The notes beneath the pieces were generated by a model. It was not told the DNA's origin. It worked only from the letters and a program-made list of their open reading frames with translations, and made no database searches. From the NCBI GenBank assembly GCA_021296315.1, contig JAGWAO010000007.1, forward strand, positions 13,737-77,736: DNA of 64,000 nt, written 5' to 3'. Positions 2,920 to 64,000 of the stretch are shown here, in pieces. The translations under genes were made by a program, and so were the position numbers. The DNA comes from Acidimicrobiia bacterium (GTDB lineage Bacteria; Actinomycetota; Acidimicrobiia; Acidimicrobiales; Aldehydirespiratoraceae). The first letter of the stretch is position 1. Every line of letters starts with the position of its first letter.

Positions 2920-2971
2920 GCGCCCGTCAGAATCCCCGGCGGTGCGGGTAAGAGTGGATACCGTGCTGAGG

Positions 2972-10351: not shown

Positions 10352-10386
10352 CCGCGAGCGGCCTCACCCGCGAATATGGTTGTGCC

Positions 10387-40081: not shown

Positions 40082-43012
40082 ATGACCGTACTGCTGGCGC
40101 TGGTCGGTGCTGGGGTCGGCGCCCTGGTCGGCGGGCTGGCCGGTCTGCTGGTCGGCGGCGTTCTCGGTCTTCTGGTGGGCCAGCAACTGGATCTGCGCAA
40201 ATGGCTCAAGAAGGTCGAGGAGACGCAGGCCCAAGTGGGCGAGATGCGGGCCTGGGCTACCGAGATGAAGGCCTGGGCCAAGCAGACCCACGACTGGCTC
40301 GTCCGACTCGGGACCACCGTCCAGCCAGCCGAGGCACGGCCGGAGGCGGCGGCACAGCCCGATGGGGAGCCCGAACCCGAAGCGGTGCCCGAGCCTGAAG
40401 CGGTGCTCGAGCCGGTCGTCAGGCCGATCGCCTCCGAACCCCCAGCCGGAGTACAAGCACCTGTCCCGCGCCCATCGACTCCTGCGCCGCCGGATACGTC
40501 GACCCGGGCGCCCCACGCTCGCCAACCCGCGCCTGCCACTTCCCCCGCGGCCGCCCCCAGCCACGCTCCCAAGCAGTCCTCCGATCCTGTCGCGCGGCTC
40601 GTCAACTGGATCAAGCAATGGGTGACGACCGGGAACGCGCCCGTGAAGGTCGGCGTGCTCGTCTCGCTCGTCGGGGTGGGGCTGCTGCTTCGGGAGGCCG
40701 ACCGGAGGGGCATCATCGAGCTGACGATCGAGGTGCGCCTGGTGGCTGCCGCCCTCTTCGGCCTGGTGCTGCTGAGCGTCGGTTGGCGCCAGCGCCGAAG
40801 CCGCCCCATCTACGGCGTCAGCCTCCAGGGCGGAGGAATGGCTGTGCTGTACGTCACGACGTACGCCGCCTTCGTCGTGTACGACGTCCTGCCGGCCGCA
40901 CCCGCTGCGGCGGCGGTGGTGGTCGTCACCGTCGGCGCGGGAGCGCTCTCGGTGCTTCAGGACTCGCGGCCGTTGGCCGTCCTGGGAATCATCGGCGGTT
41001 TCCTGGCACCGGTTCTGACGTACTCGCGCCCCGACGACCATGTCTACGTCTTCAGCTTCTTCCTGGTGCTGAACGCGGCGATCCTCGGGGTGGCCTGGTT
41101 CAAGACCTGGCCGGAGTTGAACCTCCTCGGTTTCGGCTTCACGTTCGGTCTCGCCTTCTTCTGGCTCACGAACCGCTACGAGCAGGACGAATGGATGGCC
41201 ACGCAGCCCTTCATCGTGCTGTTCGTGCTCATTTACGTGGGGCTGCCGGCCCTCTTCGCCGCCCGTGACGCACCCGACCTCAAGGGCGCGTTCGGCGAGT
41301 CGAGGGTCTCGGGCATGTCCTTCGTGCGCGAGGCATGGACCGCGCCTCTGGTGTTCGGCACACCGTTCATCGGACTGGGCCTGCAGCAGCTGGCGATCGG
41401 GCACACCGAGTACGGCCTGGCCATCAGCGCCGCCACACTGGCGGCGGTCCAGGGCGTGCTGGCACTGGCATCGCGCCGGATGGGTGTCGACCGCCGCCAG
41501 CTGGCCGAGGCCTACACGGGGCTGGGCGTGGCCTTCAGCGCCATCGCGGTCCCGCTGGCGCTGGACACGTACTTCACGTCGACGGTCTGGGCGGCGCAGG
41601 GCCTGCTGCTGGTGTGGCTGGGCTGCCGGCGGAACCGTCTGCTTGCGCTGGCCGGAGGCGCCGTGCTTCAGGTGCTGGCCGCAGTGTCCCTCTCGCAGCA
41701 CCTGGGAGAGTCTCTCCCCTATCCCGACGACGCGTGGCCGATAGCCAACGAGCACTTCCTGGGCGCGCTGCTGCTCGCCGTGGCCGGCTTGGCGTCCGGG
41801 TGGCTGCTCAGCAACAGGCCGCAGCGCGACGACGGCGACCAGGCACTGGTCTGGGTTGCGCTCGCCTGGGGGGTCGTGTGGTGGCTGATGGGCGGGGTGA
41901 TGGAGATCGTCCAGCAGCTGCCGGACAGCAGTCAGTTGTCGGCGCTTCTCGGCTTCACGGTCGGATCCTTCGCCATCGGGTCGCTGGCAGCCCGCCGGCT
42001 GCGGTGGCGCCAACTCGAGTCGGTGGGACTCCTGATCCTGCCGACCCTGGTGTTGATGCTGGTGCTGTCGCTGCTCGCTCAGTCCCATCCGCTGGACGAG
42101 TGGGGATGGGCCGCCTGGCCTGCAGCGTTCGGGCTGCACTACCTGTTCCTGCGCCGGCGGGAGAGCTCGTTCGCCCCGATGTCGCCGTTGCTTCACGCCG
42201 GCGGGTACTGGACGCTGTCGGCACTGGCGGCCCGTGAGGTGTACTGGCAGGTCGACCGGGTCGCTGAGGGCGTGTGGCCCCTGGCTGCGACGACCGCCGC
42301 GGTCCTGGCCCTGGCGGCCGCGACGATGGTGGGGCGGCGCGGGCTCGCGTGGCCGGTCGCGGCCCACTGGCGGACCTACTTGCTGGTCTGCGCCGGCCCG
42401 ATGCTGTTCGTGCTCGCTGCCGTGCTGGTCGCGGCTCTATCCCACGACGGCGATCCCCGGCCACTGCTGTACTTGCCGGTGTTGAACCCGCTGGGAGTTC
42501 TTGCCGGACTGCAGACGGCGGCGCTGCTCGTATGGAGGAAGCTGGCGCGGGAGCAGAGGGACCATCCGTTCCAGGACCTAGTCGATGCTCGCTGGTCACC
42601 GGCAGTGGCCGCAGCCGGCGTGGCGCTCGCCACGGCGGAGACGGCTCGGACGGTGAGCCACTGGCTGGACGTGCCCTGGGAGGTGGAGTCGCTCTGGAAT
42701 GCCACCGAGTTGCAGACGTCGTTGTCGATCCTGTGGGCCGTGATCGGCTTGTCGGGGATGGTGGCCGGAGTACGCATGGTCCGCCGAACCGTATGGGTGG
42801 CGGGAGCGTCGTGGATGGCGGTGGTGGTGGTCAAGCTGTTCCTGGTCGACCTGAGCAGCCTGAGCGCGCTGGGCCGGGTGGTGTCGTTCATCGTGGTCGG
42901 GGTACTGCTGCTGATCGTCGGCTACCTGGCCCCGGTTCCCCCAGCCGCACCCGCCGAGTCCCAAGAACCCGAAGAGACCGAGGAGACCGCCGAGACCGGC
43001 GAGACCGGCTAG
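40082..43012 (+). CDS. Large polytopic membrane protein (DUF2339-like architecture)
   Basis: The 976-aa protein has an N-terminal TM, a coiled segment, a Pro/Ala-rich linker, more than 20 predicted TM helices and an acidic tail. The family assignment is from memory of the architecture only. Confidence 0.45.
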   Translation: MTVLLALVGAGVGALVGGLAGLLVGGVLGLLVGQQLDLRKWLKKVEETQAQVGEMRAWATEMKAWAKQTHDWLVRLGTTVQPAEARPEAAAQPDGEPEPEAVPEPEAVLEPVVRPIASEPPAGVQAPVPRPSTPAPPDTSTRAPHARQPAPATSPAAAPSHAPKQSSDPVARLVNWIKQWVTTGNAPVKVGVLVSLVGVGLLLREADRRGIIELTIEVRLVAAALFGLVLLSVGWRQRRSRPIYGVSLQGGGMAVLYVTTYAAFVVYDVLPAAPAAAAVVVVTVGAGALSVLQDSRPLAVLGIIGGFLAPVLTYSRPDDHVYVFSFFLVLNAAILGVAWFKTWPELNLLGFGFTFGLAFFWLTNRYEQDEWMATQPFIVLFVLIYVGLPALFAARDAPDLKGAFGESRVSGMSFVREAWTAPLVFGTPFIGLGLQQLAIGHTEYGLAISAATLAAVQGVLALASRRMGVDRRQLAEAYTGLGVAFSAIAVPLALDTYFTSTVWAAQGLLLVWLGCRRNRLLALAGGAVLQVLAAVSLSQHLGESLPYPDDAWPIANEHFLGALLLAVAGLASGWLLSNRPQRDDGDQALVWVALAWGVVWWLMGGVMEIVQQLPDSSQLSALLGFTVGSFAIGSLAARRLRWRQLESVGLLILPTLVLMLVLSLLAQSHPLDEWGWAAWPAAFGLHYLFLRRRESSFAPMSPLLHAGGYWTLSALAAREVYWQVDRVAEGVWPLAATTAAVLALAAATMVGRRGLAWPVAAHWRTYLLVCAGPMLFVLAAVLVAALSHDGDPRPLLYLPVLNPLGVLAGLQTAALLVWRKLAREQRDHPFQDLVDARWSPAVAAAGVALATAETARTVSHWLDVPWEVESLWNATELQTSLSILWAVIGLSGMVAGVRMVRRTVWVAGASWMAVVVVKLFLVDLSSLSALGRVVSFIVVGVLLLIVGYLAPVPPAAPAESQEPEETEETAETGETG

Positions 43013-43184
43013 CAGTGACGGCTGCGGCCGACGCGCTCATTCTGCCGAATGGGTTGTTCGACCGTCCAGCGTTGAAGTTGTCGGTCGTCGCGTGACGCAT
43101 GGCTTGCATCGCCTTGCAGACCCAACGAGCAGCCAGACCGTCCCGGGTTGGAGAGTTCGGCGCGGTCTTGATGAGAATGCGGCT

Positions 43185-43976
43185 ATGGAATCGACGGAGC
43201 GCTTCGCGGGCCGCACCGCGATCATCACTGGAGCCGGGATCGGCGGGCTGGGGGCGGCTTACGCCGACGCGTTGGCCTCAGGCGGGGCGAGTGTGGTGGT
43301 GGCCGACATACGAGGACCGCAGGCTGAGGCCACCGCCGAAGGCATCAGCGCAGCCGGCGGCAAGGCGATGGCGCAGGAGGTTGACGTGACCGACGAGGCC
43401 TCGGTCGACGCCATGGTCCAGCGCACGATCGATCGATTCGGCCGGATCGACATCCTGATCAACAACGCGGCGGTGATGTTCCGCTTCCTTGACGAGCCCC
43501 GCACCGCGTTCTGGGAGCTGCCGCTGGCGGAGTTCGAGCTGGTGCAGCGGGTCAACGTCACCGGCTCGTGGCTGTGTGCCAAGGCGGTGTTCGGGCCCAT
43601 GAAGCGCCAGGGCGGCGGCAAGATCGTCAACGTCTCGTCGAACATGGCCCTGGGCACCGACCTGATGTGGCCGGCCCAGATGGCGGCCTACACGACTTCC
43701 AAGGCGGGGGTGATCGGCTTGACCCGGGCTCTGGCCGGCGAGGCCGGGCCGCACGGCGTCACGGTCAACGCGGTGGCCCCGGGGGTGACCAACACCGAGA
43801 CCGTGGGCGAGCACATCGACCCCGACCGGATGGAGACCCTCGCCCAGAGCCAGGCCCTGCGCCGCCAGGCCTGGCCCGACGACATCGTGGGGACGGTGAT
43901 GTTCCTGTGCTCGCCCGACAGCGACTTCATGACCGGCCAAGTCCTCTGCGTCGACGGAGGCTTCGTAACGCACTGA
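43185..43976 (+). CDS. Short-chain dehydrogenase/reductase (SDR)
   Basis: The translation shows TGAGIGGLG, NNAA and YTTSK. Confidence 0.9.
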   Translation: MESTERFAGRTAIITGAGIGGLGAAYADALASGGASVVVADIRGPQAEATAEGISAAGGKAMAQEVDVTDEASVDAMVQRTIDRFGRIDILINNAAVMFRFLDEPRTAFWELPLAEFELVQRVNVTGSWLCAKAVFGPMKRQGGGKIVNVSSNMALGTDLMWPAQMAAYTTSKAGVIGLTRALAGEAGPHGVTVNAVAPGVTNTETVGEHIDPDRMETLAQSQALRRQAWPDDIVGTVMFLCSPDSDFMTGQVLCVDGGFVTH

Positions 43977-44030
43977 CTGTTGCCATGAGGAGTGCCGCGG
44001 AGCCCGACCGCTTTAGGTCTTGACCAGTGG

Positions 44031-44052
44031 CCGGCGAGACTCTTGTCGCCGG
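44031..44052 (+). terminator. Hairpin CCGGCGA-gactcttg-TCGCCGG followed by ATTATT
   Basis: This perfect 7-bp stem with an 8-nt loop lies between the convergent SDR and VOC genes. Confidence 0.45.
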
Positions 44053-44066
44053 ATTATTCGGCCGGT

Positions 44067-44516
44067 CTACGGGTAGAGGTGGGAGGCGCTGCCGATCGGG
44101 ACTCGACCGGGCTCGGGATTGGCCACCAGCACCTCGCACTCCATGCGGTCGGGGTCCCTGAAGAACAGGCTGAGCTTGCGGCCGAAGTCGGTGACCGTGC
44201 CGTCGGTGGCGCCGGCCGTCATGAGCCTGGAGCGGATCTCGCCGAAGTCGTCGAGGCTGGCCGCGTGCAGGCCGATGTGGTCGAGCCGGCCCCGACCGAA
44301 CATCGGCGTCTGGTGGTCGGCCTGATTGTTGCCGTCGATCTCGAAGACGTTCAGCTCCGTGGCCGGACCGACGTTGATGACGGTCATGCGAGGCCCTCCG
44401 GGAAACTCCTCGCCGTCGAACTCCACGCTGGCCCCGAACATGTCGATGTAGAAGCTCTGGAGCCGGTCGGAGTCGTTGGTGATCACGGCCACATGGTCGA
44501 GCCCCTGGATGAGCAC
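44067..44516 (-). CDS. VOC-family (glyoxalase/bleomycin-resistance/dioxygenase) protein
   Basis: MLIQGLDHVAVITNDSDRLQSFY, a paired beta-alpha-beta-beta-beta pattern, and RLDHIGLH are present. Confidence 0.8.
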   Translation of the reverse strand: MLIQGLDHVAVITNDSDRLQSFYIDMFGASVEFDGEEFPGGPRMTVINVGPATELNVFEIDGNNQADHQTPMFGRGRLDHIGLHAASLDDFGEIRSRLMTAGATDGTVTDFGRKLSLFFRDPDRMECEVLVANPEPGRVPIGSASHLYP

Positions 44517-44625
44517 CGGGTAACCACCTCTCGTTCTCGGCGATGGGTCAGTCCTGGCTTGATGAGAATCCTATGGCGAGCGGGGTCCAGATGAGCGCCG
44601 TTCCCTTGCAGCCGCCGGGGTGTAT

Positions 44626-44649
44626 CCTTACTCTAGAAGCAAGGTAAGG
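44626..44649. promoter_or_regulatory. Inverted repeat CCTTAC-N12-GTAAGG with central TCTAGA (candidate antitoxin operator)
   Basis: The repeat lies directly upstream of, and overlapping, the AAGGAGG RBS of the AbrB-type antitoxin. Confidence 0.35.
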
Positions 44650-44658
44650 AGGCGTGTG

Positions 44659-44907
44659 ATGGACGCTTCGGCTCGGGTCACGTCGAAAGGCCAGGTGACG
44701 ATTCCCAAGGCAGTGCGCGACGCCCTGGCCTTGGAGACCGGGGATCGGGTCGTATTCAGGGTGGAGCAGCACCGGGCGATCATGGCCCGGACCCCCGACC
44801 TGTTGGAGCTGGCCGGCACGGTGGAAGTGCCCGCGGCCAAGCGAGGCGCAGACTGGGGCGAGGTGCGATTGGCGGCCCGGAATCGGTGGGCGCACCGGGC
44901 TCGGTGA
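44659..44907 (+). CDS. vapB: AbrB/SpoVT-family antitoxin (VapB-type)
   Basis: The SKGQVTIPKAVRDALALETGDRVVF motif is present. AAGGAGG lies 7 nt upstream of the ATG. Confidence 0.8.
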   Translation: MDASARVTSKGQVTIPKAVRDALALETGDRVVFRVEQHRAIMARTPDLLELAGTVEVPAAKRGADWGEVRLAARNRWAHRAR

Positions 44908-45296
44908 CGACCCTGGTGGACACCAATGTGCTGGTGCGTCACCTCACGGGCGACCCGCCGGACCTAGCCGCTGGGGCCACTGCCTACCTCGCGGAAGCGG
45001 CGGCGCTGATCCTGCCAGACCTGATTCTGGCCGAGGTCGTCTACGTGCTGGAGTCCTTCTACGAGGTTCCGCGGAACCGGGTTGCAGAGTTGGCTCGGTC
45101 GATAGTCGCTTTCGGGAGCATCCAGACCCTGGATCCCGGGCTGCTGCTGAGGGCAGTCGAGGTGTACGAGGTACATCGGATCGATTTCAGCGACGCCTAC
45201 CTCGTGGCGCTAGCCGAGACGGCCGGCGTCGAGGCCATCGCATCATTCGACCGCACCATCGACCGAGTCCCCACAATCAACCGCATCGAGCCATGA
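44904..45296 (+). CDS. vapC: PIN-domain toxin VapC
   Basis: The translation shows LVDTNVLV, DFSDAYLVALAE and ASFDRTIDR. The start forms a GTGA overlap with the antitoxin stop. Confidence 0.8.
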   Translation: MTTLVDTNVLVRHLTGDPPDLAAGATAYLAEAAALILPDLILAEVVYVLESFYEVPRNRVAELARSIVAFGSIQTLDPGLLLRAVEVYEVHRIDFSDAYLVALAETAGVEAIASFDRTIDRVPTINRIEP

Positions 45297-45337
45297 GCGC
45301 ACGGCTTGCGATGGCGAGGCGTCGCCCAGGCTACGGA

Positions 45338-45646
45338 TCAGCAGCCGAGGGCGTAGGTCACGGCCCGGCAGACGGCTCGCATCGTTCGGTCGCTGAGCTC
45401 GCCGGCTCGATTCGAGAGCGAAGCCCGTCGCAGCGTGTGTAGGCCGTCACAGTTGACAACCGACCCCGCCGTGATTCCAGCCACGGGATCCGGCAGGGGA
45501 ACCTCAGCAGCGAGTCCCCTACCGGTGCTGGTGATCTCAGCGACCGTGACCGATTCCCGCACGTCGATGACCTCGGGACGAGTGAGGATCAGGACCGGAC
45601 GCCGCTTGCGCCTTACCTCTGCCCACCACACCTCGCCCCTGTTCAT
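45338..45646 (-). CDS. mazF: MazF/PemK-family toxin
   Basis: The translation starts MNRGEVWWAEV..RRPVLILT. The start forms an ATGA overlap with the upstream antitoxin stop. Confidence 0.75.
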   Translation of the reverse strand: MNRGEVWWAEVRRKRRPVLILTRPEVIDVRESVTVAEITSTGRGLAAEVPLPDPVAGITAGSVVNCDGLHTLRRASLSNRAGELSDRTMRAVCRAVTYALGC

Positions 45647-45855
45647 GGGGTTCCCCATGCCTCCGCCTCGTCCCAGAAGCTGTCGGGCTGCTCCGGGAAT
45701 CGCTGGTAGGCCGCACGATCCGCTTCGCCCATGGCCCGCTTGACCGCAGCCGCCACGCCTTCGCGGGCCGCTGCCGAGATGTTGACATTGAGCCGGCGCG
45801 CCCTTTCAGCCAGTGCCTCGTCCAGAGTAAACGTCGTACGGGTCATCGCCATCAC
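45643..45855 (-). CDS. RHH/CopG-like antitoxin partner of MazF
   Basis: This 70-aa protein (TTFTLDEALAERARRLNVNISAAAREGV) is translationally coupled to the toxin. Confidence 0.7.
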   Translation of the reverse strand: MMAMTRTTFTLDEALAERARRLNVNISAAAREGVAAAVKRAMGEADRAAYQRFPEQPDSFWDEAEAWGTP

Positions 45856-45864
45856 ATTATGCTA

Positions 45865-46407
45865 TCAGAATAGATAGCACCCAGGCGCTGCGGCTGCGCG
45901 CTCAAGCTCGTGGCCCCAAGAGACGCTGCAGCGGACCGTGCTGAGCGGGCCGGCGGCGCTGGTGAAGAGGGCTATCCAGATCGAGATTGTGGCCGCGGCG
46001 ATGGCGGAGACGATGACGTAGAGCTGCCTGGCTTGGACCTTGATGATCTCGGCCCGCTCCTTGGCGGCCTGGGCGAAGCCCTCGTGCATGGTGACCTGCA
46101 AGGCGGCATGGCTCTCAACGAACTCGGCGTTCGTTTCGGCGAACCTGGCGTTGATCTCAGCAAGCGCCACTGCGAGGCTCGCTTGGAGGCGCTGCTCGAC
46201 CCCGGCAAGGTCATCCTTGGTGGCCATCTGATCCCACCCGCTGGGCGGGAGCTGGTCCATGAGGGTGTCTGCGGCTTCTTCGCCCATCGAGTCCACCAGG
46301 CTTACGTACAGCGCGGCGCGCTGCGACTGGGTTGCGGCCATCACGCGACCTCCGTCCGTTCGAGGGTGATCGGCTGGGGGCACCCGCGAGGGCTGCTCCG
46401 AGGCCAC
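45865..46407 (-). CDS. Hypothetical coiled-coil protein with C-terminal TM helix (DUF1640-like pattern)
   Basis: ATKDDLAGVEQRLQASLAVALAEINARF is followed by the hydrophobic LYVIVSAIAAATISIWIALF. GTG 46407 lies 3 nt after the upstream stop; the alternative start is ATG 46341. Confidence 0.5.
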   Translation of the reverse strand: MASEQPSRVPPADHPRTDGGRVMAATQSQRAALYVSLVDSMGEEAADTLMDQLPPSGWDQMATKDDLAGVEQRLQASLAVALAEINARFAETNAEFVESHAALQVTMHEGFAQAAKERAEIIKVQARQLYVIVSAIAAATISIWIALFTSAAGPLSTVRCSVSWGHELERAAAAPGCYLF

Positions 46408-46410
46408 CGG

Positions 46411-47352
46411 TCAGGCCTGACAGCCCAACACGGCAGCAACAACGCCACCGTATCGCATCGGAGTTATAGATTTCAACTCAATTCGGCATAGTCCAATTAA
46501 ATCTAATGTCACTAACGATGGACGCCACGTGCTGCTACTAGACGACGTCTTCAGGACGGCGCGAGATCGCAGTCGGCGCCGCGGGAGCTCTAACGGACAC
46601 CGGTGCTGGTGCCGGCCGTCTTTGTTGTCGTTCGGAGGATAAACCCCCAGTTGGCGACCAGAAGTCGAGAAGTGGTGGCCGTCCAGGTCGGGTATCTGGT
46701 TCCGCTGCTCCCACCAGTGTTGCGGGAAGTCGTCGCCGTGGCGCAGCGGCCTTCCGCACACGAGCTGCCAGTACCAGCGCTCCGCTCGATGCGCGCACAC
46801 TGTCGCCGGGGCTCGGTAGGGCGCACCGCCTGCCTCCAGCCATCCCGGCGTGCCGCTGGCAAGCCAGACTCCCCATTCGCCGGTGTCGCCGTCCCTGACG
46901 ACGCTATCCGCCCTCCGCTGGCCGTCGCGCCCCACGGGAAGCGTCGCATGGAACTCGGAGCTGTCGGGCTGGTCCGGATACTCGCTCACGCCCGCGATGG
47001 CCACGCCACCCGACCGGAGCAGCGGATCGTCGATGGCGGGTATGCCGTTGGCCAGTTCGAAACCCGACTGAGGATTGTCAGGCCCGTAGCGAAGACCCCG
47101 TCCGAGCGCGGCCTGCCAGTACCAACGCTTGGCTCGGTGGATGCTCGCCGCCAGCGGCGCGCTGTAGGGCTCGCCGCCCGCGTGCAGGAGATAGGCGCGG
47201 TCGTATCCCGCGAAGTACGGCGGCGTTCTCAGAGCGCAGTAGATGTGGACATTCCATCGCTCCTCGGATTGCGGCTCCTCTTGGATGACGCTCGCTCGCC
47301 AGAAGGCGCCGCTTGACCACACCCAGCCTGTGCTGATTCGGCAATGCCGCAT
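46411..47352 (-). CDS. Hypothetical protein with internal duplication (two RWYWQ modules)
   Basis: The ORF starts 3 nt after the protease stop. Residues 59-109 and 175-225 are clearly homologous. I do not recognise a family. Confidence 0.55.
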   Translation of the reverse strand: MRHCRISTGWVWSSGAFWRASVIQEEPQSEERWNVHIYCALRTPPYFAGYDRAYLLHAGGEPYSAPLAASIHRAKRWYWQAALGRGLRYGPDNPQSGFELANGIPAIDDPLLRSGGVAIAGVSEYPDQPDSSEFHATLPVGRDGQRRADSVVRDGDTGEWGVWLASGTPGWLEAGGAPYRAPATVCAHRAERWYWQLVCGRPLRHGDDFPQHWWEQRNQIPDLDGHHFSTSGRQLGVYPPNDNKDGRHQHRCPLELPRRRLRSRAVLKTSSSSSTWRPSLVTLDLIGLCRIELKSITPMRYGGVVAAVLGCQA

Positions 47353-47355
47353 CGG

Positions 47356-47739
47356 CTACTCCCTAACTCCTAGTGCAATGCCCTCACCAAGGGAGGGGCC
47401 GCGGGGGATCAGGTGTTGATCGACTGGGGCGACTGCCAAGGCGAGGCCCTCGAGGGTGTAGGCGCCAAGCAGGGAGGGAGCGTCATCCTCGCCGAAGGCC
47501 ACAAGGGTCGTCACGCTCTCGCCGTTGACGGTCACCCGCGCCTCGCCGAAATCGGCATCTACAATCCTGCCGTCGGCCAGTCGCATCCGGCGCCTGGCCG
47601 ACCGTTCGACGCCGATCTCGTGGAGCAGGAGCGCCGGGACCACGCTGTAGAAGGCGCCGGTGTCCACTGTGGCCTCGATCTCCACGGACCGCTCGCTGCT
47701 CGATCCGACAATCCGCAGAGGCCACTCGAGTGTTCCCAT
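47356..47739 (-). CDS. Retropepsin-like (clan AA) aspartic protease, small stand-alone type
   Basis: The translation shows ATVDTGA (D-T-G-A active-site motif), LADGRIVD and PSLLGAYTLEGLAL, a pattern seen in bacterial and archaeal clan AA mini-proteases. Confidence 0.65.
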   Translation of the reverse strand: MGTLEWPLRIVGSSSERSVEIEATVDTGAFYSVVPALLLHEIGVERSARRRMRLADGRIVDADFGEARVTVNGESVTTLVAFGEDDAPSLLGAYTLEGLALAVAPVDQHLIPRGPSLGEGIALGVRE

Positions 47740-47802
47740 GGCAGATGCCTCCCGCTCGGTCGGCCGGGCCCCGCGATTGACGTTGAGCCGAAGTCCACAG
47801 AT

Positions 47803-48181
47803 GTGAATATAGCTCAGTATAAGCTGATCTCAAGTGTTTTCCCCGTCCAATCGCACCTGCTCAAACAGATCGCACTCGACTTCGAGTACTACAGAAAGAA
47901 ACACGGCCACAATGACCTCTACAAGCTGGCCGCTCGACTCAAGGTGAGCCGCAACACGCTTGCTTAGTCTCAGCGAAGGCGAGCATTGGCCCGCCGCCAT
48001 TGCCATCATGCGACTCGAGATCTGCTACGGGCGCAGGTTCTGGGGCAAAGGACACCGAGTCGCGTCAAAGGTGCAAAGGCGTCTGCCAAGAAGGCGTAGC
48101 CGGTCCCGGCCCAGCGCTCTGCTCGTCATCGCAGGCGCCGACCCCAGGTTCCAGGTACCGGTGCGGCGCTCGTTGCACTGA
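47803..48181 (+). pseudogene. Possible frameshifted XRE-type HTH gene remnant
   Basis: Frame 1 reads ..NDLYKLAARLKVSRNTLA* and stops at 47967. Skipping one nucleotide (47962) continues as LLSLSEGEHWPAAIAIMRLEICYG, which completes a typical XRE helix-turn-helix. Confidence 0.3.
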
Positions 48182-48266
48182 AGCGGCTCCCAGGCAAGCG
48201 GTGCTCTAGGGCACCCGGGATGCTGGCGGGGGTGTTGATGACACCTCGGGCGGGCATTATGGCTTC

Positions 48267-51200
48267 GTGCTCGATTCCGGCTGGCCTGAAGACGGCTGGC
48301 GTGCGCTCGGGAGACCGGATCGCGGTGGGGAACCTTGGTGGACGCCCGAACAAGCCCGGCTCATTGGTTGGCTCAACAGATACGCGCCTTCGGTCGAGCC
48401 CTTCTATAGAGGGGCTCTAGTGCTGGCAGCGTTCGACAGCTTGCCTGGTCGGGTGCACTTCATCGCTCACGCGATCCGCGAGATCGGGAACCGTCTTCCG
48501 GTTGCGCTCGGTAACAAAGTCAAGAAGAAGACGGCCGGTTACGAGGACCACGCCAAGGCGATCCGCGATAGGTGGCTCGACGAGGGCCTCCCGCCGGATG
48601 GAAGGCTGCGGTTTCTGCAGGAATCCGCGCCTTCTGCGTCGGGTCCCCTACGCCAAGAGGTGTCCGTTGGATTATTGGCGTCGGTGGGGAAGCTGATAGC
48701 GGAGCACCGCAAGGCCGAGGCGAACAGAGAGGCCCGCGAGCGAGCCAAGTTTGGTGCCTTGAGCGACTTGGGCTCCAACCCGTCATACGTCATCAAGAAC
48801 TGGGGCAGGTGGGCTCGCGAGGCGGTCGAGTTCGTGCACGCGAGGGACAAACTGCTGCCAGCGGAGAAAGACGCCGAGTGGGTGGCGAAGTTCCTTGCGT
48901 TCGAGCAAGAGCTGATGGCCATCGCGAGACCCTCCTACGAGAATCTGGATGCACTCGACGGACTGCTAGCTGAGGCGAACAGGGCGATGAACGACTGGAC
49001 TGCACCTTCTGGCTCTGAGCTCGCACGTGTTGTAGCGCTGGCGACTCGCTTTGAGAACCGGACGTACTTCTTTGACCGCCTCGAGAACCCCGAATGGGTT
49101 TCTGCGCTGGCGGACGAGGGCGTGTTCGATGATCCCCCCGATCGGGAGCAGGCTGACGAGGCCGGGTATTGGCGGTTCCCGCCGTGGCCCGAGGGCCGCT
49201 ACCTCGCCCGTATGGCACCTGCGGCCCCGGACGCGGTCGCAGCGGTCCTGGAGAAGTCGCGACCGTCGGCCAACCCGAGGGTGACGGCCATCCTGCTTGA
49301 GTGCCTGCAAGCCCTTCCCCCCGAACAGTTCCGGAGACTCGCGCCAAAGACCCTCGAATGGATCACCGACCGTGCAGCCGCAGAGTTCATGGACCACTTC
49401 GACGATCAAGCGGCGTCGGCCGTTGCTCGCCTCGTGCGCGACGGCAAGATCGAACAGGGACTGATCGCCGCGAAGGCACTCCTGAAGCTCGAGCGCCGCT
49501 CTACGGCATCCGACAGCTCCCAGGCCCACGAGATTCCCGCGCTGCCCGAGCCCGTTGGGCGTCTCAGGGATTGGGAGTACGACCGGACGATTGCGACGAT
49601 CTTGCCGGATCTGGTCGACTCGGCAGGCCTAGATGGCCTGAGGCTGTTCTCGTCGCTGCTCTCAGTCGCCATCGAGTACTCCAGAAGCGAGGGCGAGCTG
49701 CCCGACTCCGATGGCCACTCCTGCGCCTGGAGACCGGCTATAGAAGACCACCCTCAGAATATGGATCGCGATGTCCGCTGTGTGCTCGTGACAGCAGTGC
49801 GCGACGCTGCCGTTCGCCTCGCCGTAGTCTCCGATGAGAACCTCCAGAATGTCGTGCAGATGCTCGAATCGGCAACCGCTCTGCATCGCCGTATTGCGCT
49901 GCACGTCCTCGCCGTTGTCCCGGGCGGCGCGGAACTCGCGGCCGAGCGGATCACCAACAGGACCATCCTCAACGATCACCGCCTCAAGCACGAGTACGCC
50001 GAGTTGCTTCGATCGCGATGGGTCGAAGCACCCCCCGAAGTGCAGAGGACATTCCTGGACTCGGTACTCGCCGGCCCCGACCTCGACGACTACCAGCCTG
50101 AGGACGAGACCGCCGCCGCCGAGTGCTGGATGCGCGACTGGCTGAGCATTGTCGCCGACCATCTCTCAGGCGACGACGCGGACAGGTACCGCGAACTCGT
50201 ATCGAAACACGGCGAGGCCGACCACCCGGACTTCGTGTCATGGACCGAGACTTGGAGCGGACCCACGACTCCCCGCACTACCGAACAACTGAAAGAACTC
50301 TCACCAGGCGAGGTCATCGAATATCTGGATGACTGGCGTCCCGACGCTGGAGCCGGACGGGGCTTCAGCCCCTCCATGGAAGGACTCGGTCTTACCTTCA
50401 GCAAAGCTGTATCTGAACGCGCCGCTGACTTCGCCGCTGCGGCGAACCGGATCGAGACCCTGGACCCGACCTATGTCCGCCACTTCTTGAGCGGACTCGA
50501 AGCAGCCGTCAAGGCGGGCACCGCGATCCCATGGGACCAACCGATGCACCTGATGGCATCGGTGCTGGAGCACCCCTTCGACCACCCCGAAGAATCGCCG
50601 GTCTTTGACCGTGACTCAGGGTGGCGCTGGACCCGCGGCCGGGTCGCGTCGTTGATCGAACAGGGAGTCGCCGACCGCGACAACGGGATCCCGTTCGAAC
50701 TGCGCCAAGCGGTCTGGGATGTCCTGGAGCCCCTGACGCGCGATCCGCATCCATCGCCAGGCGACGAGGCCAGCGACAGCATGGATCCGTTGACGCGGTC
50801 GATCAACACGAACCGCGGCAAGGCGATGCACGCCGTCATGGCATATGCCCTGTGGTGCGCACGCGAACTCGACGCGCAAGGCGAGGACATGTCCGCGGGG
50901 TTCGACTTGATGCCTGAGGTGCGAGCCGTGCTCGAGGAACGTCTGGACCCCGATACTGATCCGTCCCTTGCGGTGCGGGCCGTCTACGGCAAGTGGCTTC
51001 CCTGGCAAATCCTGATCGACGCGCGATGGGTATCTGCCAACATCTCGCGGATACTCCCGCCCACCCCGAACCAAGAGAGCCTCCGTGATGCCGCCTGGGG
51101 CACCTACATCTGCTGGTGCCCACCCTTCGACACGGTCTATGACGTACTGGGTGACGAGTACGAGGCTGCGGTGGAACGAATCCCCACCGGCGCCACCGTC

Positions 51201-51827
51201 GGATTCGCCAACGACGAACGAGTCGACGCCAAGCTGGGCGAGCACCTCGTCACGTTCTATTGGCGCGGCGTCCTACAACGCTCCCTGCTCGAACGCTGGT
51301 TCGAGCTCGCCGACGACGAAATCGCCGGAGACGTCATGGAGTTCTTGGGACAGGCACTCCGCGACACGCCAGAAGACATCGAGCCCCCAGTAGGGGAACG
51401 AATTCAAGGCCTCTGGGACTACCGGATCAACGTCATAACCAGCGAGCCCGAATCTCACGACAACGAAGCCAAAGCGTTCGCACTCACCTTCACCTCCGCC
51501 AAGTTCGACGACGAATGGTCTCTCGCAGGCCTCAACGCCACGTTGCGACCCGGTGACCGTAGATGGTTCGGCCGCGACGTCATAGGGCGCCTCGCCGAAA
51601 TGGCAACCACCAACCCCGTAGAGGCCACCCGACTGACTCTCAAGATGCTGGAGGATGCTGCCAACGACTGGGACCACCACAGCTGGCGTGACCCGGTTCG
51701 GGACGTCCTAACCGCGACCAGCGATGCCGCAGACGAAGAAACCCGCAACCACCGCGCCTCCATCATCGACCACTACATCAAACACGGAGACCTCGACTTC
51801 CGGGCGCTTACCCCTACGCAGCCGTAG
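48267..51827 (+). CDS. Large orphan protein (1186 aa), predicted all-alpha/HEAT-like repeat body with a distinct ~230-aa N-terminal module
   Basis: This long uninterrupted ORF lies in the A/T-richer island and has a GTG start. I see no recognisable catalytic or NTPase motif. The sequence is helix-rich with recurring W/F-x-x-L-type repeats. Confidence 0.7.
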   Translation: MLDSGWPEDGWRALGRPDRGGEPWWTPEQARLIGWLNRYAPSVEPFYRGALVLAAFDSLPGRVHFIAHAIREIGNRLPVALGNKVKKKTAGYEDHAKAIRDRWLDEGLPPDGRLRFLQESAPSASGPLRQEVSVGLLASVGKLIAEHRKAEANREARERAKFGALSDLGSNPSYVIKNWGRWAREAVEFVHARDKLLPAEKDAEWVAKFLAFEQELMAIARPSYENLDALDGLLAEANRAMNDWTAPSGSELARVVALATRFENRTYFFDRLENPEWVSALADEGVFDDPPDREQADEAGYWRFPPWPEGRYLARMAPAAPDAVAAVLEKSRPSANPRVTAILLECLQALPPEQFRRLAPKTLEWITDRAAAEFMDHFDDQAASAVARLVRDGKIEQGLIAAKALLKLERRSTASDSSQAHEIPALPEPVGRLRDWEYDRTIATILPDLVDSAGLDGLRLFSSLLSVAIEYSRSEGELPDSDGHSCAWRPAIEDHPQNMDRDVRCVLVTAVRDAAVRLAVVSDENLQNVVQMLESATALHRRIALHVLAVVPGGAELAAERITNRTILNDHRLKHEYAELLRSRWVEAPPEVQRTFLDSVLAGPDLDDYQPEDETAAAECWMRDWLSIVADHLSGDDADRYRELVSKHGEADHPDFVSWTETWSGPTTPRTTEQLKELSPGEVIEYLDDWRPDAGAGRGFSPSMEGLGLTFSKAVSERAADFAAAANRIETLDPTYVRHFLSGLEAAVKAGTAIPWDQPMHLMASVLEHPFDHPEESPVFDRDSGWRWTRGRVASLIEQGVADRDNGIPFELRQAVWDVLEPLTRDPHPSPGDEASDSMDPLTRSINTNRGKAMHAVMAYALWCARELDAQGEDMSAGFDLMPEVRAVLEERLDPDTDPSLAVRAVYGKWLPWQILIDARWVSANISRILPPTPNQESLRDAAWGTYICWCPPFDTVYDVLGDEYEAAVERIPTGATVGFANDERVDAKLGEHLVTFYWRGVLQRSLLERWFELADDEIAGDVMEFLGQALRDTPEDIEPPVGERIQGLWDYRINVITSEPESHDNEAKAFALTFTSAKFDDEWSLAGLNATLRPGDRRWFGRDVIGRLAEMATTNPVEATRLTLKMLEDAANDWDHHSWRDPVRDVLTATSDAADEETRNHRASIIDHYIKHGDLDFRALTPTQP

Positions 51828-52136
51828 GCAACTGCGCGTTGCGTCTGCGCTGTCCGTAGTTTGGGCACCATGCGCAAACTCGATGTCCGCATTCGTTGAG
51901 GTCAGAGGAATGGGCTAGGTCAATTGAAAGTGACCGAGTATTGCTTGCGGTCGTCCTCCCAGCCGCGGTCGATCGTTGTCCAGCGCAGCGTCAGCCGCGT
52001 CCTCGATCTTGGTGAGACTCGCTTCCACGCTGTCCCGAAGTTGCACAAACTGGGAATCGGCTTAACAGTAAACTTATCGACAATCAACCCGCGCCCGGTG
52101 CGCTGGACCGAGACAACCGGGTAACGCTGCGCCATC

Positions 52137-53261
52137 ATGGGGGCATGGAGATCCATGGAACCTGCAAGCCCGGCTTCGAGGCAGTGCGCGACGCGTTCGA
52201 GGGAGATCGGGGCGGCCGCGGCCATAACCGTGGACGGCGAGTTCGTGGTCGACATCTGGGGCGGCGACGCCGACAGCGAAGGCACGCCCTGGCAGCGCGA
52301 CACAATCGTCAACGTCTACTCCACCACCAAGACCATGGCCGCTGCCTGCATGCTGGTGCTGGCCGACCGGGGCGAGCTCGACTTCGACGCCCCCGTCGCG
52401 CGGTACTGGCCCGAGTTCGCCCAGAACGGCAAAGACGGCGTGCTGGTGCGCCACGTGATGGCCCACACTGCCGGACTACCGGGCTTCGACCCGCCCATCA
52501 CCACCGATCAGCTCTACGACCTCGACTTCGTCGCGGCCAACCTCGCGGCCCAGGCGCCGTGGTGGGAGCCGGGCACCGCCCCGGGCTACCACGCCATCAG
52601 CCAGGGCAACCTCCAGGGCGAGATCCTCTACCGCATCACCGGACAGCGCATGGCCGACTGGTTCCGCACCGAGGTGGCCGAACCCCTCGGAGCCGACTTC
52701 TGGATCAGCCTGCCCGCCTCCGAGGACCACCGGGTCGCCGAGCTCGTGCCCCCGGTGTTCAGCCGCGAGGAACTCACGATCAACGGCGTGGAGGTGTCCG
52801 CCGACTCCATCGCGGTCAAGGCCATACTCAGCGTCCCGATGACCGCCACCGAGCCGGCCACCCGGGAGTGGCGGGCCGCCGAGATCCCCGCCGCGGGCGG
52901 CTTCGGCAACGCCCGCTCGATCGCCCGCATCCACGCTGCGCTGGCCTGCGGAGGCACGGTGGACGGGGTCCGGCTGCTGTCGGAAGCCGGGGCCCGCCGG
53001 GCCCTGGAGGAGCAGACCGACGGCATCGACCAGGTGCTGATGGTGCGCCTGCGCCACGGGCTCGGCTTCGGGCTGCAGCTGGGCGACGAGTTCACGACCG
53101 AGCCGGGCCAGATGTTCTGGGGAGGCTGGGGAGGCTCGCTGGCCGCGGTCGACCTCGACGCCCGTATGAGCGTCGCCTACGTGATGAACCGCATGGACGC
53201 CGAGCTCATGGGCGACATCCGCGGCCGCCGGATCGTTGACGCCGTCCGGACCTGCCTGTAG
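52137..53261 (+). CDS. Serine hydrolase, beta-lactamase/esterase (class C-like) family; N-terminus probably frameshifted
   Basis: The translation shows VYSTTKT (SxxK) and ITVDGEFVVDIWGG. The family-typical N-terminus MEIHGTCKPGFEAVRDAFE is encoded in a different frame starting at 52145. Confidence 0.75.
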   Translation: MGAWRSMEPASPASRQCATRSREIGAAAAITVDGEFVVDIWGGDADSEGTPWQRDTIVNVYSTTKTMAAACMLVLADRGELDFDAPVARYWPEFAQNGKDGVLVRHVMAHTAGLPGFDPPITTDQLYDLDFVAANLAAQAPWWEPGTAPGYHAISQGNLQGEILYRITGQRMADWFRTEVAEPLGADFWISLPASEDHRVAELVPPVFSREELTINGVEVSADSIAVKAILSVPMTATEPATREWRAAEIPAAGGFGNARSIARIHAALACGGTVDGVRLLSEAGARRALEEQTDGIDQVLMVRLRHGLGFGLQLGDEFTTEPGQMFWGGWGGSLAAVDLDARMSVAYVMNRMDAELMGDIRGRRIVDAVRTCL

Positions 53262-55292: not shown

Positions 55293-55342
55293 GCCTCACC
55301 GGCGCGAACGGGTGAGAACCCGTCGTGTCGCAGCGGTGCCAC

Positions 55343-55443
55343 TCCCGCTCCTGTTCGCTGCGCTCACCGGCCGCTCGGGCCACGGCCTCGCTCAGCTCGC
55401 GCCCGAGACCCTCTCAACCGATGCGAGTCCGCTCGGGCCTCAG
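55343..55443. repeat. Copy C of the ~100-bp interspersed repeat family
   Basis: The sequence is tcccgctcctgttcgctgcgctcaccggccgctcgggccacggcctcgct...gtccgctcgggcctcag. Its right end overlaps the glcF stop codon. Confidence 0.8.
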
Positions 55444-57621: not shown

Positions 57622-57684
57622 CCCGCTCGGCCTCTCAGAAGACGAGCGGGCAGGTGATGCCGCCTCGCGCTGCGACGCTGTCAT

Positions 57685-57785
57685 TCCCGCTCTTGTTCGC
57701 TGCGCTCACGGGCCGCTCGGGCCACGGCCTCGCTAAGCGTCTCATCAGACCCATCAGGAATCTCAGTCACCCCGCTCGGCCTCTG
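57685..57785. repeat. Copy D of the ~100-bp interspersed repeat family
   Basis: The sequence is tcccgctcttgttcgctgcgctcacgggccgctcgggccacggcctcgct...ccccgctcggcctctg. It lies in the glcD-glcE spacer and ends 3 nt from the glcD stop. Confidence 0.8.
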
Positions 57786-62434: not shown

Positions 62435-64000
62435 ATGACTGCCGGCCAGGCCTGTGGATCGTCGCCGTTCGTGCCGGTGCCGCTCACGCCGGTGTCCTTC
62501 CTCGACCGGGCCCGGCTGGTGCACGGCGATCGGCCCGCGGTGGTGGACGGGCCGCTGCGGCGCAGCTACGAGGATCTTGCCGACCGTTGCGAGCGGCTGG
62601 CCGGAGCCTCTCTCGACCTGGGCCTGGAGCCCGGCGACGCGGTGTCGGTGCTGGCCCCCAACGTGTCGATAGCCCTGGAGGCGACGTTCGGGTTTCCCAT
62701 GGCCGGCGTGGTGTTCAACGCGCTGAACTCCAGGCTGTCAGCACCAGAGCTGGCCTGGATCGTGGGCCACGCCGAGTCCAAGGTGCTCTTCGCCGACCAC
62801 GGCCTGGCCGATGTGGCCCTGCAGATCCAGGAGCAGGTGCCGGGCTTGCGGGTGGTGGTCTCAAGCGACGCCGGCGTCTCGGGCGCGTCCGACTGCGAGT
62901 ACGAGGCGCTGCTGGCCGCGGCCCAGCCCCACCGGGCCGAGTTCGCCGACGAGCACACCGTGCTGAGCCTCAACTACACGTCGGGCACGACCGGCAACCC
63001 CAAGGGCGTCATGTACTCGCACCGGGGCGCCAACCTCAACGCGCTGGCCATGGCTGCCCAGTGCGGCCTCGACAGCGGCGCGGTGTTCCTGTGGACGCTG
63101 CCCATGTTCCACTGCAACGGCTGGTGCTTCCCGTGGGCGGTCACCGCGGTGGGCGGGGTGCACCTGATGCTGAGGACCCCCGACCCCGGCACGGTGTGGC
63201 GCCATATCCGCGACGACGGCGCGACCCACTTCAACGCCGCCCCCACCGTGCTGATCGGCCTGGTCAACCACCCCGATGCAGCGCCGGCGCCCCGGACCGT
63301 GAAGGTGTGCACCGGCGGCGCGCCCCCGTCACCCACCCTGCTGGCCCAGCTGGCCGAGCTCAACATCGGTGTCACCCACCTCTACGGCCTGACCGAGACC
63401 TACGGCCCGTCGCTGATCTGCGACTGGCGCAGCGAATGGGACGGCCTGCCCGCCGCTGAGCAGGCCCGGATCAAGGCCCGCCAGGGGGTGGGCACGCTGG
63501 TGACCTCCTCGGTGCGGGTGGTCGACGCCGACGGCGCGGACGTGCCCGCCGACGGCACCGCGCAGGGGGAGATCGCCATCCGGGGCAACAACGTGATGCT
63601 CGGCTACTACAAGGACCCCGAGGCCACCGCGGCGGCGTCGGTGCACGGGCCCGGCGGCACCTGGTTCCGGACCGGGGACGTGGCCGTGATGCACGACCAC
63701 GGCTACGTCGAGGTGCGGGACCGGGCCAAGGACGTGATCATCTCCGGCGGCGAGAACATCGCCTCCATCGAGGTCGAGCAGGCCCTGGCGTCGCACCCCG
63801 ACGTGGTGGAGTGCGCGGTGGTGGCCGCCCCCGACGACACCTGGGGCGAGGTCCCCGCCGCGTTCGTGGTGCTCCGGGCAGGCGCGGCCACCACCGAGGC
63901 CGAACTCGTCGAACACGTCAAGTCCCGCATCGCCCGCTTCAAGGCACCGAAGTCGGTGACCTTCGGCGACCTGCCCAAGACGGCCACCGGCAAGATCCAG
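62435..64000 (+). CDS. AMP-dependent acyl-CoA synthetase/ligase (medium-chain type), 3' end outside window
   Basis: This ORF is not in the track because it has no stop codon before the window edge. My own translation from ATG 62435 gives YTSGTTGNPKG, HLYGLTETYG, FRTGDVAV and ends TATGKIQ at the edge. Confidence 0.85.
   Translation, partial: MTAGQACGSSPFVPVPLTPVSFLDRARLVHGDRPAVVDGPLRRSYEDLADRCERLAGASLDLGLEPGDAVSVLAPNVSIALEATFGFPMAGVVFNALNSRLSAPELAWIVGHAESKVLFADHGLADVALQIQEQVPGLRVVVSSDAGVSGASDCEYEALLAAAQPHRAEFADEHTVLSLNYTSGTTGNPKGVMYSHRGANLNALAMAAQCGLDSGAVFLWTLPMFHCNGWCFPWAVTAVGGVHLMLRTPDPGTVWRHIRDDGATHFNAAPTVLIGLVNHPDAAPAPRTVKVCTGGAPPSPTLLAQLAELNIGVTHLYGLTETYGPSLICDWRSEWDGLPAAEQARIKARQGVGTLVTSSVRVVDADGADVPADGTAQGEIAIRGNNVMLGYYKDPEATAAASVHGPGGTWFRTGDVAVMHDHGYVEVRDRAKDVIISGGENIASIEVEQALASHPDVVECAVVAAPDDTWGEVPAAFVVLRAGAATTEAELVEHVKSRIARFKAPKSVTFGDLPKTATGKIQ

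Follow-up and report, generated by a model that had tools for sequence, protein, structure and literature searches.

A core-flanked defence and toxin-antitoxin hotspot in a sponge-symbiont Acidimicrobiia genome, with a candidate anti-phage gene related to Dsr1

The window analysed here is a stretch of 64,000 nucleotides (nt) from a contig of a metagenome-assembled genome (MAG) of an uncultured, sponge-symbiotic member of the Acidimicrobiia, with a GC content of ~70%. Between an SDR gene and a serine-hydrolase gene it contains a multi-site hotspot of defence and toxin-antitoxin (TA) genes which is flanked by core genes and is not a one-off insertion. The largest gene of this interval, an open reading frame (ORF) coding for 1186 amino acids (aa), appears to be an in-frame fusion, via one inserted G, of a widespread two-gene module whose parts we designate A and B. 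From its alignments, B is a homologue of the phage-defence protein Dsr1 minus the N-terminal SIR2 domain. We regard it as probable that this is a defence/TA hotspot with cassette turnover in which A-B is an anti-phage system, B sensing a phage protein and activating the effector A. The features of the interval are listed in Table 1.

Comparison with related genomes

Nine relatives (L001-L009), one genome per species with the hydrolase as query, share 84-90% identity with the window at the hydrolase; their labels read 'Candidatus Aldehydirespirator' or Acidimicrobiaceae sponge MAG. Nucleotide and protein comparison revealed flanks common to all nine species, with differing gene sets in between. 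L008 carries vapBC and a coiled-coil gene; L003 has a VOC gene, mazF, a ribbon-helix-helix (RHH) gene and a diverged coiled-coil gene; and among the cargo of the other relatives are an AAA_23/SMC-like ATPase (744 aa), Fic/DOC, an SNF2 helicase, HNH_2 and PLD/NgoFVII-like nucleases, and an ankyrin protein. Extra PIN-type TA genes were also read from the relatives' sequences at the same site. The SDR gene adjoins the hydrolase in 9 of 9 relatives, and in six a SnoaL-like gene is found beside the hydrolase as well. Where these genes stand in the relatives, the window has a segment unique to its own lineage, 46445-52104, which comprises the genes for an internally duplicated protein and a protease, a helix-turn-helix (HTH) remnant and the 1186-aa gene. 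No traces of the relatives' SDR, SnoaL-like or fam8 genes were found inside the window's island.

The window's 42799-52422 is collinear, at 97% identity, with L084, a JGI sponge-metagenome contig (record name 'PetF') in which the genes follow one another in the same order. Since this conspecific shares the order and the other species differ, the arrangement is fixed within the species but not beyond it. The original prediction, made from the letters of the window, described a compositional island of the defence or conflict type. It is supported by the alignment with relatives, in which the interval is hypervariable between conserved flanks and its gene order is kept only in the conspecific contig, by the defence-type cargo of the relatives, and by the defence-island contexts of homologues of the 1186-aa gene (see below). 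Variable TA- and defence-rich cargo between conserved flanks in related genomes is the hallmark of a defence hotspot, and it is what we find here.

Variable defence cargo between conserved chromosomal genes has been described in Pseudomonas and enterobacteria. The window's hotspot resembles these in its conserved flanks, species-varying cargo, enrichment in TA and defence genes and lower GC. It differs from them in its host, an uncultured sponge-symbiont member of the Acidimicrobiia, in having no associated integrase or tRNA, in that cassettes occupy several sub-positions, and in that a metabolic pair, SDR plus SnoaL-like, has been displaced.

Composition and boundaries

The interval had been described as visibly richer in A/T than its flanks, and windowed GC, GC at third codon positions (GC3) and tetranucleotide deviation all bear this out. 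Mean GC in 1-kb windows is 0.644 across 44.5-52.2 kb versus 0.703±0.024 for 108 windows elsewhere, with 14 of 14 consecutive island windows lying under the outside mean. GC3 ranges from 0.71 to 0.83 (mean 0.77) in the island ORFs and is 0.887±0.052 in 41 outside ORFs of at least 100 aa (Mann-Whitney p=4.6e-5), while the GC-normalised tetranucleotide deviation is maximal at 46-50 kb (0.31-0.33 vs 0.242±0.026).

Both edges require correction. The left one had been set at the end of the VOC gene (44516); homology to the relatives ends at 43976-43980, past the SDR gene, in L007 and L008, or at 44549, past the VOC gene, in L003 and L004. The conserved edge is the SDR gene, and the VOC gene is variable cargo, found in L003, L004, L084 and L085 and missing from L007 and L008. 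The right edge had been placed at the hydrolase, ~52137; in 9 of 9 relatives homology restarts at 52105-52141 instead.

A tRNA/tmRNA scan and an Rfam scan of the stretch each returned zero hits, and no integrase or transposase families were present among the family matches of the island ORFs. An exact-match search for direct repeats at the edges gave a sole notable result, the 16-nt AGGCAGTGCGCGACGC at 44708 (in vapB) and 52179. This was considered as an att site and rejected. Both copies encode the peptide AVRDA (KAVRDA in vapB, EAVRDA in the hydrolase) in strongly biased codon usage, and the one on the right belongs to the ancestral sequence coding for the hydrolase N-terminus, which the relatives share; the match is therefore a coding coincidence. 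No repeats bracket the lineage-specific 46445-52104, the longest word in common being 10 nt. The predicted lack of mobility genes and att repeats at the edges is thus upheld, and the marks of a classical integrase-mediated island (integrase or transposase, tRNA/att target, direct repeats) are missing.

Could the interval nevertheless be a decayed single integrative element or prophage, acquired once as a block, that has lost its integrase? The uniformly lower GC across 44.55-52.1 kb, the decayed XRE-type HTH in the lowest-GC intergenic region and the absence of any other visible mobility mechanism are what such an element might leave behind. We nevertheless consider this very unlikely, given that every mobility feature sought is lacking, that the relatives' cassettes differ and occur at several positions of the interval, and that homologues of the 1186-aa gene were not found in phage genomes or viral contigs. 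Nor are the parts of one age. Nucleotide identity to L008 is 84% for vapBC and 80% for the coiled-coil gene, compared with 79-85% for the core flanks; having diverged like the core, these genes are therefore old residents and not recent imports. The idea of a single acquired block has accordingly to be given up, only 46445-52104 being unique to the lineage.

The 1186-aa gene and its two parts

Although it had been taken for an orphan, the 1186-aa protein has over 150 close homologues and falls, by homology, within the Dsr1 sensor lineage. Most of these homologues are ~950 aa long and align with the final 80% of the query alone; its initial 240 aa are elsewhere encoded by a separate upstream gene (84% identity in L081), and standalone homologues of ~240 aa exist. 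In most relatives the split A and B genes overlap by ATGA, as seen at the junctions in L081 and L083. The window's junction, AGGGCGATG, has one extra G compared with the split form, AGGCGATGA, which brings A and B into frame. The identical +G junction is present in L084, L082 is fused via a different junction, and distant clusters also hold fused proteins of 1108-1181 aa; A and B have been fused independently at least twice. The two are still adjacent at ~27-31% identity, as where downstream of an A homologue ~27% identical there is a B homologue of 954 aa (hhalign E=5e-144). The occurrence of A and B as split, fused and adjacent forms is therefore Rosetta-stone evidence for joint action, and by these comparisons A-B is an ancient, obligately linked pair.

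Pfam recognised no domain in the 1186-aa protein, and PDB sequence and profile searches with the whole protein, A and B gave noise only. No similarity, of the kind expected from a shared EAD-like adaptor domain, was found between A and the N-terminal domain of B.

B as a Dsr1 scaffold without SIR2

The PADLOC Dsr1 profile PDLC04166 matches the window protein at 1.1e-37 (aa 482-1129) and also 9 of 9 tested B-containing homologues, at 1e-22 to 1e-57 and over profile positions ~320-1216 of 1227. With the homologues P0101 and P0120 the alignment begins at B aa 21-27 and profile position 319-322, and ends at ~1020-1100 of 1227. The SIR2 part of the profile, positions 1-318, was unmatched in the window protein and in every homologue, and no SIR2 family was returned by a Pfam search of the window protein at E up to 10. 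The NCBIfam Dsr1 equivalog NF041818 scored 25.7 bits over one local stretch, far short of its cutoff of 1400. Because the homologues align from B residue ~21 to profile position ~320 onward, B is best described as Dsr1 without SIR2.

The confident AlphaFold2 (AF2) model of B (predicted local distance difference test, pLDDT, 87.9) comprises a 232-aa N-terminal helical domain, a flexible linker and an alpha-solenoid of ~680 aa. A PDB fold search with it gave generic HEAT and karyopherin proteins only (TM score <=0.28), a result that bears out the solenoid but says nothing about Dsr1. A STAND NTPase (P-loop) domain was not detected in the 1186-aa protein by Pfam, and the AF2 model of B is an all-helical solenoid.

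DSR proteins possess an N-terminal SIR2 domain; they deplete NAD+ and so bring phage infection to an abortive end (bioRxiv 10.1101/2021.12.14.472415). A bilobed tetratricopeptide-repeat (TPR) sensor, by which the phage major capsid protein is recognised, is common to Dsr1 and the STAND protein Avs7 (PMC12803255). The Avs7/Dsr1 sensor also occurs without STAND, combined with NADase, nuclease, kinase and 'unknown' effectors (PMC12803255; bioRxiv January 2026), and a HEPN-like RNase effector is found on it in a Streptomyces protein (PMC12803255).

With Dsr1 the window protein shares a region of ~900 aa, downstream of SIR2 in the former and homologous to B (family members score up to 8e-57), an alpha-solenoid or TPR-like fold, and the character of a self-contained defence-island gene. 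It differs in lacking SIR2 and in having instead the 240-aa helical domain A, which is a separate upstream gene in most relatives. With the proteins that carry the Avs7/Dsr1 sensor it shares the concept of one sensor lineage and many N-terminal effectors; unlike Avs7, it has no STAND NTPase. DSR2, in which SIR2 is joined to a HEAT-like C-terminal domain that senses the phage tail tube, has a similar architecture of an N-terminal effector followed by a long alpha-solenoid that binds a phage structural protein, but its effector differs from the window's, and no DSR2 chain was present among the PDB sequence or fold matches, nor was any sequence relation found.

Domain A as a candidate effector

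The A family numbers about 844 clusters at 50% identity. Its near-invariant residues are H68, R71, E72, N75, W103, W179, H191, E213, D231 and N238, the polar ones among which (H68, R71, E72, N75, H191, E213, D231, N238) are kept across 100 sequences that are 21-59% identical to the window copy. A sits in the slot held by SIR2 in Dsr1. Because it replaces SIR2 positionally and has invariant polar residues, A is proposed as the effector. The family has no entry in Pfam (2025 copy), NCBIfam (2026) or PADLOC (2023).

A Pfam/NCBIfam scan of 100 diverse A members gave sub-threshold matches to pP_pnuc_1 in 5 of the 100 (best 1e-3). One distant member has a sub-threshold match to DUF4145 (E=0.0036), which recurred in 0 of 100 in the wider scan. 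Naming A from either family was rejected, the matches being scattered and sub-threshold. It is possible, at somewhat less than even weight, that A is a divergent HEPN-like nuclease, and it may perhaps be the HEPN-like effector already described on this sensor (PMC12803255).

Differences from the conspecific contig

Comparison of the window with L084 over 9.6 kb gives ~99.7% identity except at 48490-49500. This tract takes in two-thirds of A, on its C-terminal side, and the greater part of B's N-terminal domain; its nucleotide sequence is 74-88% identical to that of L084, with zero indels. Its allele shows 88-90% aa identity to those of a different lineage (P0003 and P0129) versus 61-81% to L084; outside the tract the protein and its L084 counterpart are 97% identical. 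Such a mosaic carries what appears to be the signature of allelic exchange by homologous recombination, and the exchanged tract covers the effector-proximal end and not the sensor.

A second difference concerns the hydrolase. A 20-nt deletion at 52201, found only in the window and absent from L001-L009 and L084, frameshifts the first ~27 codons of the hydrolase; ATG 52137 restores the ORF with 22 unrelated N-terminal residues, and most relatives (L002-L009) match it from aa 23 only. Possible causes are incipient pseudogenisation, replacement of the N-terminus and an error of assembly.

Perhaps the fusion, the 1-kb tract and the 20-nt deletion are all artefacts of metagenome assembly, the real genome then being split A+B and like the conspecific. 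The window is MAG-derived, alleles at 75-90% identity coexist in sponge metagenomes and invite chimeric joins, and the deletion is unique to the window. The +G fusion, however, is also present in L084, an independent JGI assembly, and fusions occur elsewhere too, in L082 by a different junction and in the distant clusters. The tract for its part has no indels, keeps the frame and all invariant residues, and has its edges inside 99.7%-identical sequence, which fits homologous exchange. On balance an artefactual origin seems quite improbable.

Neighbourhoods and distribution of A-B homologues

Homologues of A-B repeatedly keep the company of defence genes. In L082 the fused A-B stands beside type I restriction-modification (R-M), MNT/HEPN and PIN modules, in L083 a homologue lies beside DUF499/HEPN_Swt1 and SNF2 genes, in L089 beside type I R-M and a STAND NTPase, in L088 beside AAA_21 and RloB, and in L081 beside transposases and DUF4062. 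Distant relatives are found on plasmids of Streptomyces, Legionella, Vibrio and haloarchaea, and no B homologues were detected in phage genomes or IMG/VR viral contigs.

Some of these loci have further features. In L082 (4923-10636) the fused A-B overlaps the start of hsdM by 4 nt and is apparently the first gene of the type I R-M operon; the MNT/HEPN and PIN modules lie immediately upstream of it and a NYN nuclease downstream. A protein from a Streptomyces plasmid, WP_331721222.1, matches in its B part by tblastn (9e-27) and weakly in its A part (hhalign E=2.9e-4, probability 41%), where HxxRE is retained; from these matches it appears to be a distant fused A-B homologue. Its gene (L091, Streptomyces sp. 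NBC_00212 plasmid, NZ_CP108116.1 15.4-27.8 kb) lies beside those for a TnsA-like endonuclease, a protein with a Mu-transposase C-terminal domain and a TniB-family protein, and may be cargo of a Tn7-like transposon. Finally, the A+B pair MYA16007.1/MYA16006.1 (P0008/P0137), labelled Gammaproteobacteria, is 76% (B) and 57% (A) identical to the window copy; either there has been a recent cross-phylum transfer in sponge microbiomes or this is a binning error.

The sponge association raises another alternative, namely that the cluster has nothing to do with phage defence, the TA pairs stabilising the region and the solenoid being a housekeeping scaffold of sponge symbionts, like ankyrin and eukaryote-like repeat proteins. 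Close homologues do come mostly from sponge-associated MAGs and metagenomes, an ankyrin-repeat gene occurs in the same hotspot of relatives, and the fold search with B gives only eukaryotic HEAT proteins. Against this stand the sequence homology, which is specific to the Dsr1 defence family, and the repeated defence-island contexts, including non-sponge samples and the Streptomyces, Legionella and haloarchaeal plasmids. The distribution is moreover patchy and suggestive of horizontal gene transfer, with a 76%-identical B labelled Gammaproteobacteria, and the allele is swapped between strains. A role outside defence is therefore, in our view, most improbable.

Proposed mechanism and its alternatives

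The preferred reading, a defence/TA hotspot in which B senses and A acts, would operate at two levels. At the level of the locus, cargo cassettes would be gained, lost and replaced at several positions between the SDR gene and the hydrolase, presumably by homologous recombination through the flanks and between alleles and not by an integrase. The current cargo would then consist of VapBC, the CcdA-like/MazF pair, the coiled-coil membrane protein, the protease with the duplicated protein, the decayed HTH and the 1186-aa anti-phage candidate. At the level of the protein, B, by analogy with Dsr1 and Avs7, would bind a phage structural protein during infection. Bound B would activate A, the putative effector and possibly a divergent HEPN-like nuclease, and active A would arrest the infected cell or phage replication.

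A number of observations weigh against this reading. For A, searches of Pfam, NCBIfam, PADLOC, PHROGs and PDB profiles yielded nothing significant; its AF2 model is poor (pLDDT 61), and a fold search with that model returned nothing. There is little behind the HEPN idea, namely the single DUF4145 match, a resemblance in motif and a possibly related protein in the literature. Conservation at H191 is 98%, but the R expected six residues before it (Rx4-6H) is not conserved, and hhalign of A with the HEPN_Swt1- and HEPN-annotated proteins in the fetched loci gave no match. As to B, no solved Dsr1 or Avs7 structure appeared among its PDB matches, and it is homology to Dsr1 alone that would link it with capsid sensing. 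Cassette exchange driven by recombination is deduced from patterns, and since the window comes from a MAG, assembly errors could be involved in the mosaic tract, the 20-nt deletion and the +G fusion, as weighed above.

A further possibility is that A is not an effector, B sequestering a phage structural protein, or A, as a regulatory or antitoxin-like partner, restraining a toxic N-terminal domain of B. In line with this, no search gave a catalytic family for A, the split layout with its ATGA overlap resembles TA-like coupling, and the swapped tract touches both A and B's N-terminal domain, which is what interacting surfaces that co-evolve would show. That domain of B is, however, homologous to Dsr1 profile positions ~320-545, which argues for a shared scaffold and not a new toxic module; A is exactly in the effector slot of SIR2; and its near-invariant polar residues fit an active site better than a lid. 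Avs7 and Dsr1 no longer gave defence once the effector had been disrupted, and in the case of Avs7 a sequestration mechanism was excluded (PMC12803255). We therefore judge it unlikely that A is something other than an effector.

The toxin-antitoxin pairs and the minus-strand string

The inventory of the original prediction (vapBC, a minus-strand string, an HTH remnant and the 1186-aa ORF) was essentially right. The two TA pairs of the hotspot are ordinary. vapB and vapC overlap by 22 nt and have the features of a type II VapBC module; the L084 counterpart of VapB is an 82-aa product, and the gene is 84% identical in nucleotide sequence to that at the same site in L008. In the second pair the RHH antitoxin gene lies upstream of mazF on the minus strand with a 16-nt overlap, in the manner of MazEF/CcdAB-like modules. 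Compared with the type II VapBC and MazEF/CcdAB modules, both pairs have canonical layouts; the second is a hybrid, a CcdA-like antitoxin with a toxin of the MazF fold, and otherwise usual. It adjoins the VOC gene in L003, and a remnant of the CcdA-like RHH gene was found in L004.

The five minus-strand genes are tightly packed (gaps of 3-9 nt or overlaps), and a promoter-like site lies upstream of the protease gene, although such sites are at chance expectation (1 observed vs 0.8 expected). On the strength of this packing and site, co-transcription is plausible. The description of the string as a five-gene operon, on the other hand, has to be modified, since in relatives it falls into three cassettes which occur separately and at other positions: the protease with the duplicated protein, the coiled-coil gene, and the CcdA-like/MazF pair. 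The string is thus an accretion.

The coiled-coil family (fam1) was detected in 8 of 9 relatives, L007 being the exception; its orientation varies, and there are sometimes two copies. The protein matched no family in Pfam or NCBIfam. The gene has an 18-nt indel at 45948 relative to L084, and the L001 family member (9412-9903) has tandem LLQRELKASEK repeats. The duplicated protein was another supposed orphan for which homologues were found, 24 in all and 233-240 aa long. Its self-alignment shows 46% identity over 65 aa (z=25), and a 1-nt indel at 46644 relative to L084 lengthens the ORF from 253 to 313 aa. The protease matches PF13650 (Asp_protease_2) at 8.8e-6 and TIGR03698 at 1.2e-13, the latter under the TIGR03698 cutoff. 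Protease and duplicated protein recur as a pair, with a 4-nt overlap, elsewhere in the same hotspot of L085, where (5648-7223) they lie two small ORFs upstream of a DUF3467 gene. In L086 and L087 the duplicated protein occurs without the protease, beside PemK or PIN TA modules and DUF1156/DUF499 genes.

Of the probable HTH remnant that had been proposed, the frameshifted plus-strand ORF stands, but its family support is weak: the repaired translation gives an HTH_3 match at E=0.053, under the cutoff. It lies in the lowest-GC intergenic stretch, where L084 has a 54-aa ORF.

Table 1. Features of the hotspot and its borders in the window
Feature	Position	Strand	Remarks
Hypervariable hotspot	43980..52105	.	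Conserved SDR gene left, serine-hydrolase gene right; from blastn/tblastn against L001-L009 and composition
VOC/glyoxalase gene	44067..44516	-	GC3 0.93 (native-like); variable cargo
Low-GC part of hotspot	44550-52105		From composition
VapB antitoxin, AbrB/SpoVT/MazE type	44620..44907	+	PF04014 1.2e-10; likely true start ATG 44659
VapC PIN-domain toxin	44886..45296	+	PF01850 6.2e-17; 86% aa identity to L008
MazF/PemK toxin	45338..45658	-	PF02452 1.5e-14; 73% aa identity to L003 (there beside VOC)
CcdA-like RHH antitoxin	45643..45855	-	PF07362 1e-7; 91% aa identity to L003
Coiled-coil protein, C-terminal transmembrane segment	45865..46407	-	Start uncertain; site resident in most relatives
Internally duplicated protein	46411..47352	-	313-aa ORF; conserved family ~233-240 aa
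Retropepsin-like (clan AA) aspartic protease	47356..47739	-	3 nt upstream of duplicated-protein gene
XRE-type HTH remnant	47803..48050	+	Broken by stop and frameshift at 47965
Promoter-like TTGAGA-16-TATATT	47806..47833	-	Low-GC divergent intergenic region upstream of protease gene
1186-aa ORF	48267-51827	+	Identical to NCBI MCE2511392.1 (Acidimicrobiia MAG)
Domain A (aa 1-240)	48267..48986	+	All-helical; candidate effector
Mosaic tract	48490..49500	+	aa ~75-411; C-terminal two-thirds of A and most of N-terminal domain of B
Fusion junction AGGGCGATG	48981..48989	+	One extra G vs split form AGGCGATGA; A and B in frame
Domain B (aa 241-1186)	48987..51827	+	N-terminal domain aa 241-472, linker, alpha-solenoid aa 503-1186
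Right junction and hydrolase 5' end	52105..52210	+	Ancestral start ATG 52145 (alignment with L001-L009, L084)

Other sites in the window

A second low-GC islet lies at 2500-4489 (GC 0.60, GC3 0.75-0.80). By eye, it was labelled as containing a 139-aa PIN-like ORF and a 548-aa protein with the Fic motif HPFQDGNGR, beside a 1614-aa helicase-like gene; a Pfam-confirmed Fic/DOC gene is present in the main hotspot of L002. A 93-nt direct repeat (80% identity) at 55304-55396 and 57646-57738 brackets 2.3 kb. L001-L009 have ~2.1-2.3 kb of extra DNA at 55312-55440, and the 93-nt repeat matches the relatives in reverse orientation; from this comparison 55312-55440 appears to be a second variable site. 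ORFs with low GC3 (0.73-0.81) outside the island are found at 10045-11088, 14719-15417 and 63329-63916.

Significance

The hotspot in itself is ordinary, and it provides a clean example from uncultured sponge symbionts, a group for which few such hotspots have been charted. Both the sensor lineage and the idea that its effectors are swapped are already published (2026); within the literature searched, we found neither the split form with translational coupling nor the allele swap on the effector side. Tentatively, and with some doubt, we propose that A+B is a distinct, unnamed anti-phage system. Here a Dsr1-type capsid-sensing scaffold would have had its SIR2 replaced by an undescribed all-helical effector family, usually supplied in trans from a translationally coupled upstream gene and occasionally fused, and the effector-proximal part, not the sensor, would be exchanged between co-occurring strains. 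If this is true, the exchange on the effector side would point to counter-defence pressure there.

The Dsr1 sensor scaffold is, on the homology described, widespread without SIR2 and paired with a 240-aa partner, either separate or fused. If A is an effector, it would represent a new toxic or enzymatic domain. The natural split and fused forms are ready constructs for studying how activation is passed to an effector in trans, and the exchange of A plus B's N-terminal domain between strains would be a natural experiment on the part of the receptor against which phages press.

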